A DNA stretch of 64,000 nt from assembly GCF_057098645.1 (NCBI RefSeq), contig NZ_CM169472.1; one strand, written 5' to 3'. The notes beneath the pieces are model-generated. The model had not been told where the DNA came from and ran no database searches. It worked only from the letters and a program-made list of their open reading frames with translations. A program made the position numbers and the translations under genes. Shown here one piece after another: positions 32,087 to 39,891 of the stretch (position 1 is the first letter of the stretch; the number at the start of each line of letters is the position of its first letter).

Positions 32087-34171
32087 CTACTTCTTCTTCG
32101 CTGCAGCTCTGCGCCGTCTGTCCAAATCCTTCAGCAACTTGTTCACGCCATCATCGGCAAACATCGTCTCAAGCGTTGCGGAAAGCTTGCGTCGCCAGTT
32201 TTTATACTGGTAACTGGTGCCAGGAATATTCACCGGTTCGGCCATATCCAGCCAGTCTTCCGGCTGTAGTCCTAACAGAGCACTGTTACTGTCGGCAATG
32301 TAGCGCTGCAAACCACGGTTCAGCGTCGGCGTCATCGACATCAACGATGCCTTATGCCCGGCACGTTTTGGCAGACAACCATATTTATGCAGTGCATCCA
32401 GCAGCCCTTGCTTCGCCAGTTCGCGATCCTGATACAGACCGCGCAGTACCACTTCATCCGGATACAGCCCCAGGGTTTTGCCCAGAGTTAGATCCCCGCT
32501 CTCCCAGTAGCCGCGTAGCGTAGGCAGGTCATGTGTCGCCGCAACCGCCATCGACTGCTCCGGATACGCTTTCGGTGCACGGAACGTCTTCTCGTGGTCG
32601 TTTTCGAAATAGAGCACTTTGTAGGAGTACACACCGCTGCTGCGCAGCTTACCGACAATCTCTACCGGTACGGTACCGAGATCTTCACCAATCACCATAC
32701 AGCGATGACGTTTACTTTCGAGTGCCAGAATCGAGAGCAGATCATCCACCGGATAGTGAACATACGCGCCCTGATCCGCCGTCTCGCCATACGGTATCCA
32801 CCACAAACGCAGCATCGACATCACATGGTCAATTCGTAATGCGCCGCAGTTTTGCATATTGGCACGCAACAGCTCGATAAACGGTTCATAGGCACGCGCG
32901 GTGATGATATGCGGGTCCATTGGCGGTAATCCCCAGTTCTGCCCCAACGGGCCGAGGATATCCGGCGGCGCGCCAACCGACGCTTTCAGGCAATATAGTT
33001 CACGGTCACACCAGGTTTCCGCCCCACCTTCCGCTACGCCAACCGCCAGATCACGATACAAGCCAATCGGCATTTCATAGCCCTGGCTTATCTCCCAGCA
33101 GGCGGCAAACTGGCTGTAAGCCAGCCACTGCAGCCAGAGATAAAAATCAACGTCATCGCGATGTTCTTCGCAGAACTGACGCACTTCTGGTGAATCCACG
33201 TTCTGATACATCTCTGGCCATGCAGGCCAGCCCCAGCGCATTTCGTCCTCTTTCACTTGCTGGGCATGTAGCGCATCAAAGGCTGCCTGCCAGAACAGGC
33301 TGTCGCCTTGATCTGCAACAAACTGGCGAAACGCGGCCATCTGCTCATCATCACGTTGCGCGAAACCTTTCCACGCCATTCGTAATGCTGTCATTTTTAG
33401 GGCGGTAACCGTGGAGTAATCGACCCAGTCGGCATCCCGCGCCTGTTGCAGCGTCTGTTGCGTGGTCGGCAACTGCCACCAGGCCTGAGCCTCTTCGCTA
33501 AGATGGAAATCTTCGACGGCGTTAACGTCGATATAAATCACATTCAGCCAACGGCGAGAAGACGGGCTGTATGGGCTGGCACTCTCCGGATTTGCCGGAT
33601 AGAGCGCATGAATCGGGTTCAGGCCGATGAACGACCCGCCACGTTTTGCCACATCCACCAGCATCGCTTTGAGATCGCCAAAATCCCCAATACCCCAGTT
33701 TTTTTCCGATCGCAGCGTATAAAGCTGGACGCAGGCACCCCACAGCTTTTGTTTATTCAGCAACGCCTGCGGTTCGTAACAGCGTTTCGGGGCGACAATC
33801 ACCCGGCAATGCGCGCGCTGGTCGTCCTGGGTGAGTGTCAGCGTGTGATAACCTTCCGGCAGCTTCGTCGGTAGATTGAACGCTTTGCCCCCCGTTACAT
33901 GGCCTTTGTACTGCGTTCCTTCTTCGGTGGTCAGCAGCCAGCTATATTCGCCGCTGCCCTCCACCACCATCGGCATTTTTTTGCCGCTGGTATAAACCAT
34001 GACATTCGGGACTGGCGTTACCGCCACTTTCGTGGCGGTACGTTGATGCATCGCGTCAAGCAAACGCCGTTTGGTTTCGGCGCTAATCGACTGCGGTTTA
34101 CCGTGGGCATTGATGTAATTGGGGCTAATCCCCGCCGCCAGCGCGGCATTATCCAGACGTTTGCTTTCCAT
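32087..34171 (-). CDS. malQ: 4-alpha-glucanotransferase (amylomaltase)
   Basis: 694 aa ORF MESKRLDNAALAAGISPNYINAHGKPQSISAETKRRL... Confidence 0.96.
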   Translation of the reverse strand: MESKRLDNAALAAGISPNYINAHGKPQSISAETKRRLLDAMHQRTATKVAVTPVPNVMVYTSGKKMPMVVEGSGEYSWLLTTEEGTQYKGHVTGGKAFNLPTKLPEGYHTLTLTQDDQRAHCRVIVAPKRCYEPQALLNKQKLWGACVQLYTLRSEKNWGIGDFGDLKAMLVDVAKRGGSFIGLNPIHALYPANPESASPYSPSSRRWLNVIYIDVNAVEDFHLSEEAQAWWQLPTTQQTLQQARDADWVDYSTVTALKMTALRMAWKGFAQRDDEQMAAFRQFVADQGDSLFWQAAFDALHAQQVKEDEMRWGWPAWPEMYQNVDSPEVRQFCEEHRDDVDFYLWLQWLAYSQFAACWEISQGYEMPIGLYRDLAVGVAEGGAETWCDRELYCLKASVGAPPDILGPLGQNWGLPPMDPHIITARAYEPFIELLRANMQNCGALRIDHVMSMLRLWWIPYGETADQGAYVHYPVDDLLSILALESKRHRCMVIGEDLGTVPVEIVGKLRSSGVYSYKVLYFENDHEKTFRAPKAYPEQSMAVAATHDLPTLRGYWESGDLTLGKTLGLYPDEVVLRGLYQDRELAKQGLLDALHKYGCLPKRAGHKASLMSMTPTLNRGLQRYIADSNSALLGLQPEDWLDMAEPVNIPGTSYQYKNWRRKLSATLETMFADDGVNKLLKDLDRRRRAAAKKK

Positions 34172-34180
34172 CGAGCTTCC

Positions 34181-36598
<2,418 letters not shown>

Positions 36599-36640
36599 TC
36601 AACACAACGTTATCGCTAGTTTGCCAGGCTCGATGTTGAC

Positions 36641-36690
36641 CTTCCTCATCCTGCGGGGGATTAGGCAGGGAGGAGTTGCGGGGATGAGCA
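36641..36690. promoter_or_regulatory. MalT box cluster in the malP promoter
   Basis: GGATGAGG (complement of cctcatcc at 36644-36651), GGGGATTAGG (36654-36663) and GGGGATGAG (36680-36688) match the MalT box consensus GGGGA(T/G)GAGG, positioned upstream of malP. Confidence 0.55.
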
Positions 36691-37179
36691 AGGAAATGTG
36701 ATCTCAACCACTTAAAGCTAGTGCAAACCACAGGATTAGCAGCAAATCAATGCCATACAGCGCAGAAAATCTGTATCTAAGTGCAAAAAATGGCCGTTGC
36801 GTATTTTCAAAAAGCGGAAGGTAACTCTATAAATTAAGTAAAGGAGTGAAACAGTTTCACAAGTAAAATATCCAGTGTGCTCCATCTCATTCTTAATAGA
36901 TTTATTAAGATCATCTTTTTAGATAGCACTTTCATCAGGAATGAAGAAGAAACCCTTGCTTAAATGAATCTGATGAACATAAGGGAAACCAGTATTCACG
37001 CTGGATCAGCGTCGTTTTAGGTGAGTTGTTAATAAAGATTTGGAATTGTGACACAGTGCAAATTCAGACACATAAAAAAACGTCATCGCTTGCATTAGAA
37101 AGGTTTCTGGCCGACCTTATAACCATTAATTACGAAGCGCAAAAAAAATAATATTTCCTCATTTTCCACAGTGAAGTGA

Positions 37180-39891
<2,712 letters not shown>

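Follow-up and report, generated by a model that had tools for sequence, protein, structure and literature searches.

At malPp, the malPQ promoter of Escherichia coli K-12, binding and transcription depend on MalT, ATP and maltotriose. The divergent region between malP and malT in the genome studied here raises the question of which of the short motifs ahead of malP correspond to the MalT sites of that promoter. A preliminary description of positions 36641-36690 of the window (the whole stretch of 64,000 nucleotides that was analysed) had singled out three MalT-box-like motifs, located 70-115 bp upstream of the malP start, and had matched them to the known multi-site architecture of malPQ. Our analysis of this segment, in which a consensus scan detects four MalT-type boxes, suggests that it is very probably the MalT-box array of malPp, the MalT-dependent promoter of malPQ. 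The array is already known biology, and one of its boxes was mis-assigned in the earlier description.

The window belongs to an E. coli chromosome. Over the interval 36400-37300, identity to E. coli O145 RM9872 is 100%, and essentially every complete E. coli genome matches at 97% or more; the region occurs in 5423 of the 5426 complete genomes. Both malP and malT are annotated by RefSeq in identical or near-identical E. coli records, which confirms the divergent arrangement previously read from the letters, and the position of the malP ATG (36574, minus strand) bears out the distance of the motifs from the gene. The genes concerned are as follows:

32087-34171, minus strand: malQ, downstream of malP (open reading frame and RefSeq annotation of matching records)
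34181-36574, minus strand: malP, encoding maltodextrin phosphorylase, 797 aa, with its ATG at 36574 (open reading frame and RefSeq annotation)
37186-39891, plus strand: malT, the MalT activator gene, 901 aa, intact and divergent from malPQ (open reading frame and RefSeq annotation)

The MalT-type boxes sit upstream of a maltose-regulon operon, malPQ, in a genome that encodes MalT. The malP-malT intergenic region is 611 bp long and shows four differences when compared to the K-12 derivative C600-p2-3 (at 36742, 36754, 36860 and 36925), none of which lies inside 36640-36715 or in the malP promoter. The promoter region 36575-36741 is identical in sequence to K-12, and therefore what is known from K-12 carries over one to one; K-12 malPp has the same locus, genes and box array, and its promoter is without any difference. 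Window coordinates are converted into those of MG1655 (NC_000913.3) by adding 3,515,899.

The scan made use of the MalT-box consensus GGGGA(T/G)GAGG with its core GGA(T/G)GA, as quoted in the literature (PMC7567727). The four boxes, with their approximate centres relative to the inferred malPQ start, are:

36680-36689, plus strand: distal box (classical site 1), GGGGATGAGC, a 9/10 consensus match with a perfect core, pointing away from malP, about -73.5
36667-36676, plus strand: second box (classical site 2), AGGGAGGAGT, with the perfect core GGAGGA, about -60.5
36656-36665, plus strand: near-consensus box, GGGGATTAGG, 9/10 in the 10-mer with the core GGATTA matching at 5/6, about -49.5
36644-36653, minus strand: proximal box (classical site 3), CAGGATGAGG, with a perfect core, pointing towards malP, about -37.5

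Perfect cores occupy 36646-51 (minus strand), 36669-74 and 36682-87 (both plus strand), and the 5/6 core occupies 36658-63. The three motifs named at the outset are all real and lie where they had been placed (36644-51, 36656-65 and 36680-89). The inverted motif CCTCATCC corresponds to GGATGAGG on the minus strand at 36644-36651, which as a 10-mer reads CAGGATGAGG (36653..36644), and GGGGATGAG(C) is the distal motif at 36680-36689 on the plus strand. The boxes at 36680-89 and 36667-76 form a direct repeat with a start-to-start distance of 13 bp, which leaves the 10-mers 3 bp apart, and GGGGATTAGG together with the proximal box forms the inverted repeat TCATCC-N6-GGATTA. As an additional observation, the likeness of the proximal and distal boxes extends past the 10-mer into GGATGAGGAAGG (36640-36651) and GGATGAGCAAGG (36682-36693), two 12-nt arms that are 92% complementary, and this extension is not kept in other genera.

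The box centres listed above follow from the placement of the core promoter, for which the elements are:

36618-36623, minus strand: inferred -10 hexamer CAAACT, inside the conserved block TGGCA(A/C)ACTA
36611 (plus or minus 1-2 nt), minus strand: inferred malPQ transcription start, an A, with a leader of about 37 nt

The start near 36611 was deduced from the position of the -10 (-12 to -7) and from the proximal box centre at -37.5, and a -10 at -12 to -7 in turn puts the boxes at -37.5, -49.5, -60.5 and -73.5. The proximal box points towards malP and begins 30 bp before the -10, which is the placement of a box overlapping the -35 region as reckoned from the inferred start. On the malP strand, a simple sigma-70 scan gave no promoter-like match that included a good -35, as would be expected where an activator has to substitute for this element. 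In the parts of the Cappable-seq and SMRT-Cappable-seq supplements that were covered, a search by coordinate gave no entry for the malP start. TAACGT (36612..36607) was also considered as the -10 and was dropped, as it would move the proximal box to about -49.5 and the conserved block is CA(A/C)ACT.

Comparison with other MalT promoters of MG1655 is informative for both the core promoter and the boxes. The distance from the start of the proximal 10-mer to a weak -10 is 30 bp in all five promoters (malPp, malSp, malZp, malKp and malEp), and the hexamers are CAAACT at malPp and malSp, CAAGGT at malZp, CATAGT at malKp and GAAACT at malEp, so that the latter four promoters resemble malPp in having the weak form (C/G)A(A/T)A(C/G)T. 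The 13-bp box pair recurs at malKp (segment L083, 355-364 and 368-377), at malEp (199-208 and 212-221) and at malZp (segment L085, 2418-27 and 2431-40), and because of this shared spacing GGGGATGAGC and AGGGAGGAGT can be regarded as a direct-repeat module. Similarly, malZp has the same 13/23-bp layout as malPp, with the nearer distal box 23 bp from an oppositely oriented proximal box. The identical TGGCAAACT is present at malSp and malZp has TGGCAAGGT in its place, in both cases as far from the proximal box as at malPp. Unlike malPp, malKp has overlapping box registers with a 3 bp offset, and no counterpart of the conserved GGATTAG box, which at malPp lies between the distal sites and the proximal one, is seen at malZp, malSp, malKp or malEp. 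Both malKp and malEp also require CRP. An extended -10 block can be recognized, TGGCAAACT at malPp (36614-36625) and malSp (segment L086, 2456-2464) and TGGCAAGGT at malZp (segment L085, 2481-2489), and its beginning lies 30 bp downstream of the proximal box start in every case.

The evolutionary behaviour of the array was assessed on malP loci fetched from 80 species-level Enterobacteriaceae genomes, whose MalP proteins are 86-98% identical, by aligning the 200 bp upstream of the malP ATG in 81 sequences. In these 81 genomes, the four boxes and the -10 are all conserved, in contrast to the sequence that separates them. Mean information content reaches 1.75 bits for box 1 (36680-89), 1.73 bits for box 2 (36667-76), 1.45 bits for the GGATTAG box (36656-65), 1.76 bits for the proximal box (36644-53) and 1.70 bits for the -10 block TGGCA(A/C)ACTA; columns upstream of about -105 (0.28 bits) and in the -32 to -15 spacer (0.73 bits) show essentially no conservation. 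Furthermore, the spacing is invariant in 81 of 81 sequences, with 13 bp from box 1 to box 2, 11 bp from box 2 to the GGATTAG box, 12 bp from the GGATTAG box to the proximal box, and 30 bp from the start of the proximal box to the -10 hexamer. Within box 2, CTCCTCCC is kept in at least 95% of the 81 species, and its T/G position carries G in most species and T in 3 of the 81; at the equivalent position of the proximal box, 49 species have T and 32 have G. The degenerate T/G position thus toggles in boxes 2 and 3 as the consensus predicts. In GGGGATTAGG, it is the CTAATCC (the complement of GGATTAG) that is kept in at least 95% of the species.

These data allow the possible interpretations of the segment to be weighed. 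Judged from the window alone, the box cluster stands out only modestly: of 300 dinucleotide shuffles, 14 had three perfect cores inside 50 bp, and of 200 shuffles, 6 had four 10-mer matches in such a span, which means that comparable clusters occur in about 3-5% of shuffles. Across the whole window, matches to the 10-mer consensus (up to 2 mismatches allowed) are not enriched (71 vs 70.5 expected). Such figures would leave room for the idea that the cluster consists of chance, functionless G-rich words in an intergenic region, but the boxes and their spacing are kept in 81 species while the flanks diverge, and other MalT promoters show an identical geometry. As conservation and common geometry together indicate that the cluster is not a matter of chance, this explanation, whose probability we regard as negligible, was rejected and is effectively refuted by the conservation. 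A different proposal, implicit in the preliminary description, is that its trio constitutes exactly the three characterised sites, with GGGGATTAGG as site 2 and AGGGAGGAGT as a bystander. GGGGATTAGG indeed matches 9/10 positions of the extended consensus, is conserved, and resembles the distal box over 14 nt. However, its core is GGATTA and not GGA(T/G)GA, and it lies 24 bp from the distal box vs the 13 bp of the malKp, malEp and malZp pairs, while AGGGAGGAGT combines a perfect core with the least variation of any box and occupies the 13/23-bp positions seen at malZp; we therefore consider this proposal quite improbable.

The classical sites are accordingly taken to be 36680-89 (site 1), 36667-76 (site 2) and 36644-53 (site 3), a provisional numbering that derives from the geometry. 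GGGGATTAGG is presumably not among the three classical malPp sites of Raibaud and Danot. The arrangement of malPp in the literature, in which the proximal site is centred at -37.5/-38.5 and the two distal ones form a direct repeat, agrees with the geometry found here. Placed in this way, the characterised sites all fall within the same 50 bp and do not map elsewhere. Of the match to the malPQ architecture that was originally proposed, the promoter, the protein, the interval, GGATGAGG (site 3) and GGGGATGAG (site 1) stand, and only the remaining site has to be changed, since GGGGATTAGG had been taken for site 2 and the real direct-repeat partner, AGGGAGGAGT, had been overlooked. A full-text literature search for malPp sites yielded general statements or unrelated matches only. 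The title of Vidal-Ingigliardi 1991 refers to a direct-repeat motif common to all mal promoters. In addition, the MalT promoter pulAp and the engineered malPp800, which mimics pulAp, have four MalT sites each (PMC10427625), which suggests that wild-type malPp has fewer.

The status of GGGGATTAGG is a separate matter. Although not a classical site, it may be a weak fourth MalT contact, a suggestion that we hold to be almost as probable as its opposite. In the fuller form of this idea, to which we would give slightly below an even chance, all four boxes would be real MalT contacts in a regular array of about 12 bp (13, 11 and 12), in which the GGATTAG and proximal boxes would be paired as an inverted repeat, like dimeric LuxR-type domains; it extends the main explanation and does not contradict it. 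The presence of GGATTAG in at least 95% of the 81 species with an invariant spacing is consistent with this, and TCATCC-N6-GGATTA resembles the palindromic MalT motif of Actinoplanes, TCATCC-N5-GGATGA (PMC7567727). Klebsiella pulAp and malPp800 provide a parallel with their four MalT sites (PMC10427625), as malPp likewise displays four box-like elements if GGATTAG is counted; the sequence of malPp800 is absent from the supplement of that paper. Moreover, T at core position 5 is also found in box 1 of 9 species (GGAGTA) and in the second box of the 13-bp pair at malEp, GGGGCGTAGG. On the other hand, the core T of GGGGATTAGG is replaced by the consensus G in none of the 14 most frequent of its 27 variants, a pattern that could equally reflect selection unrelated to MalT binding, and malZp and malKp are without a box at the equivalent place.

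Further upstream, a second conserved element adjoins the array, and it is to be distinguished from the CRP site of the malT promoter:

36697-36712 (22-mer 36694-36715): CRP-like box, reading TGTGATCTCAACCACT on the plus strand, at about -93.5 from the inferred malP start
37047-37062, plus strand: known malT-promoter CRP site, TGTGACACAGTGCAAA, with the same sequence as the RegulonDB entry at -70.5 (PMC3105977)

TGTGATCTCAACCACT matches TGTGA-N6-TCACA at 14/16 positions, and when read towards malP it has the form AGTGG-N6-GATCACA. In the 81 species, its half-sites reach 1.98 and 1.71 bits vs 0.67 bits for the spacer, and a distance of 7 or 8 bp separates it from box 1 in every one of them. Shimada et al. 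(2011) had already given the exact TGTGATCTCAACCACT as a predicted CRP box, inside a genomic SELEX peak of the malPQ/malT spacer for which malT was named as the target (PMC3105977); the predicted CRP site is therefore not new. The effect of CRP on malPQ has been described as indirect, through MalT (PMC6390033), and the parts of the CRP ChIP-exo supplement text that were searched contained no match for a peak at TGTGATCTCAACCACT. From the position of TGTGACACAGTGCAAA at -70.5, transcription of malT would begin near 37125, which is about 61 nt ahead of its ATG. The invariant GATCACA half of the CRP-like box also contains a Dam methylation site, GATC, at 36700-36703.

Considering the two additional elements together, it is conceivable, though we regard it as rather doubtful, that malPp exceeds the textbook description of a three-site, CRP-independent promoter by means of the GGATTAG box at -49.5 and the CRP box at about -93.5. 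If so, either box could tune malPQ, by a weak contact with a fourth protomer or by direct catabolite input, and such tuning would have gone unseen in the classical K-12 assays.

MalT has been described to multimerise and to bind MalT boxes cooperatively (PMC4381067, PMC10427625). At malPp, MalT together with ATP and maltotriose would form a multimer that occupies the boxes cooperatively, and the box-bound MalT would then recruit RNA polymerase, with the proximal box (36653..36644) presumably standing in for the -35 element ahead of the weak -10 CAAACT and the start near 36611. Our own basis for this scheme is the sequence, its conservation and the common geometry; occupancy by MalT, the exact start and the numbering come from the literature or by deduction. 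As malPp is one of the classic MalT model promoters and the window carries its K-12 sequence unchanged, identification of the promoter as such matters little. The useful results are that the box map has been corrected (GGAGGA added, the status of GGATTAG revised), that the layout is constant down to the single base pair in 81 species, and that two additional elements, the GGATTAG box and the CRP-like box, are conserved, with as yet putative roles at malPp.

Finally, some minor observations concern the rest of the intergenic region. Its central part of about 320 bp (36716-37040) appears AT-rich by eye and contains all four K-12 SNPs, and the portion of this stretch that is nearest to malP (36716-36760) is essentially unconserved between genera, with 0.28 bits per column. 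Plasmid records that match part of the malP-malT intergenic region number 61 in all. One IncFIB conjugative E. coli plasmid (NZ_CP026206.1, 178158-183377) carries a full malT copy with a 260 bp upstream region, together 99.6% identical to window positions 36926-39891, with IS1 transposase genes on the flanks.
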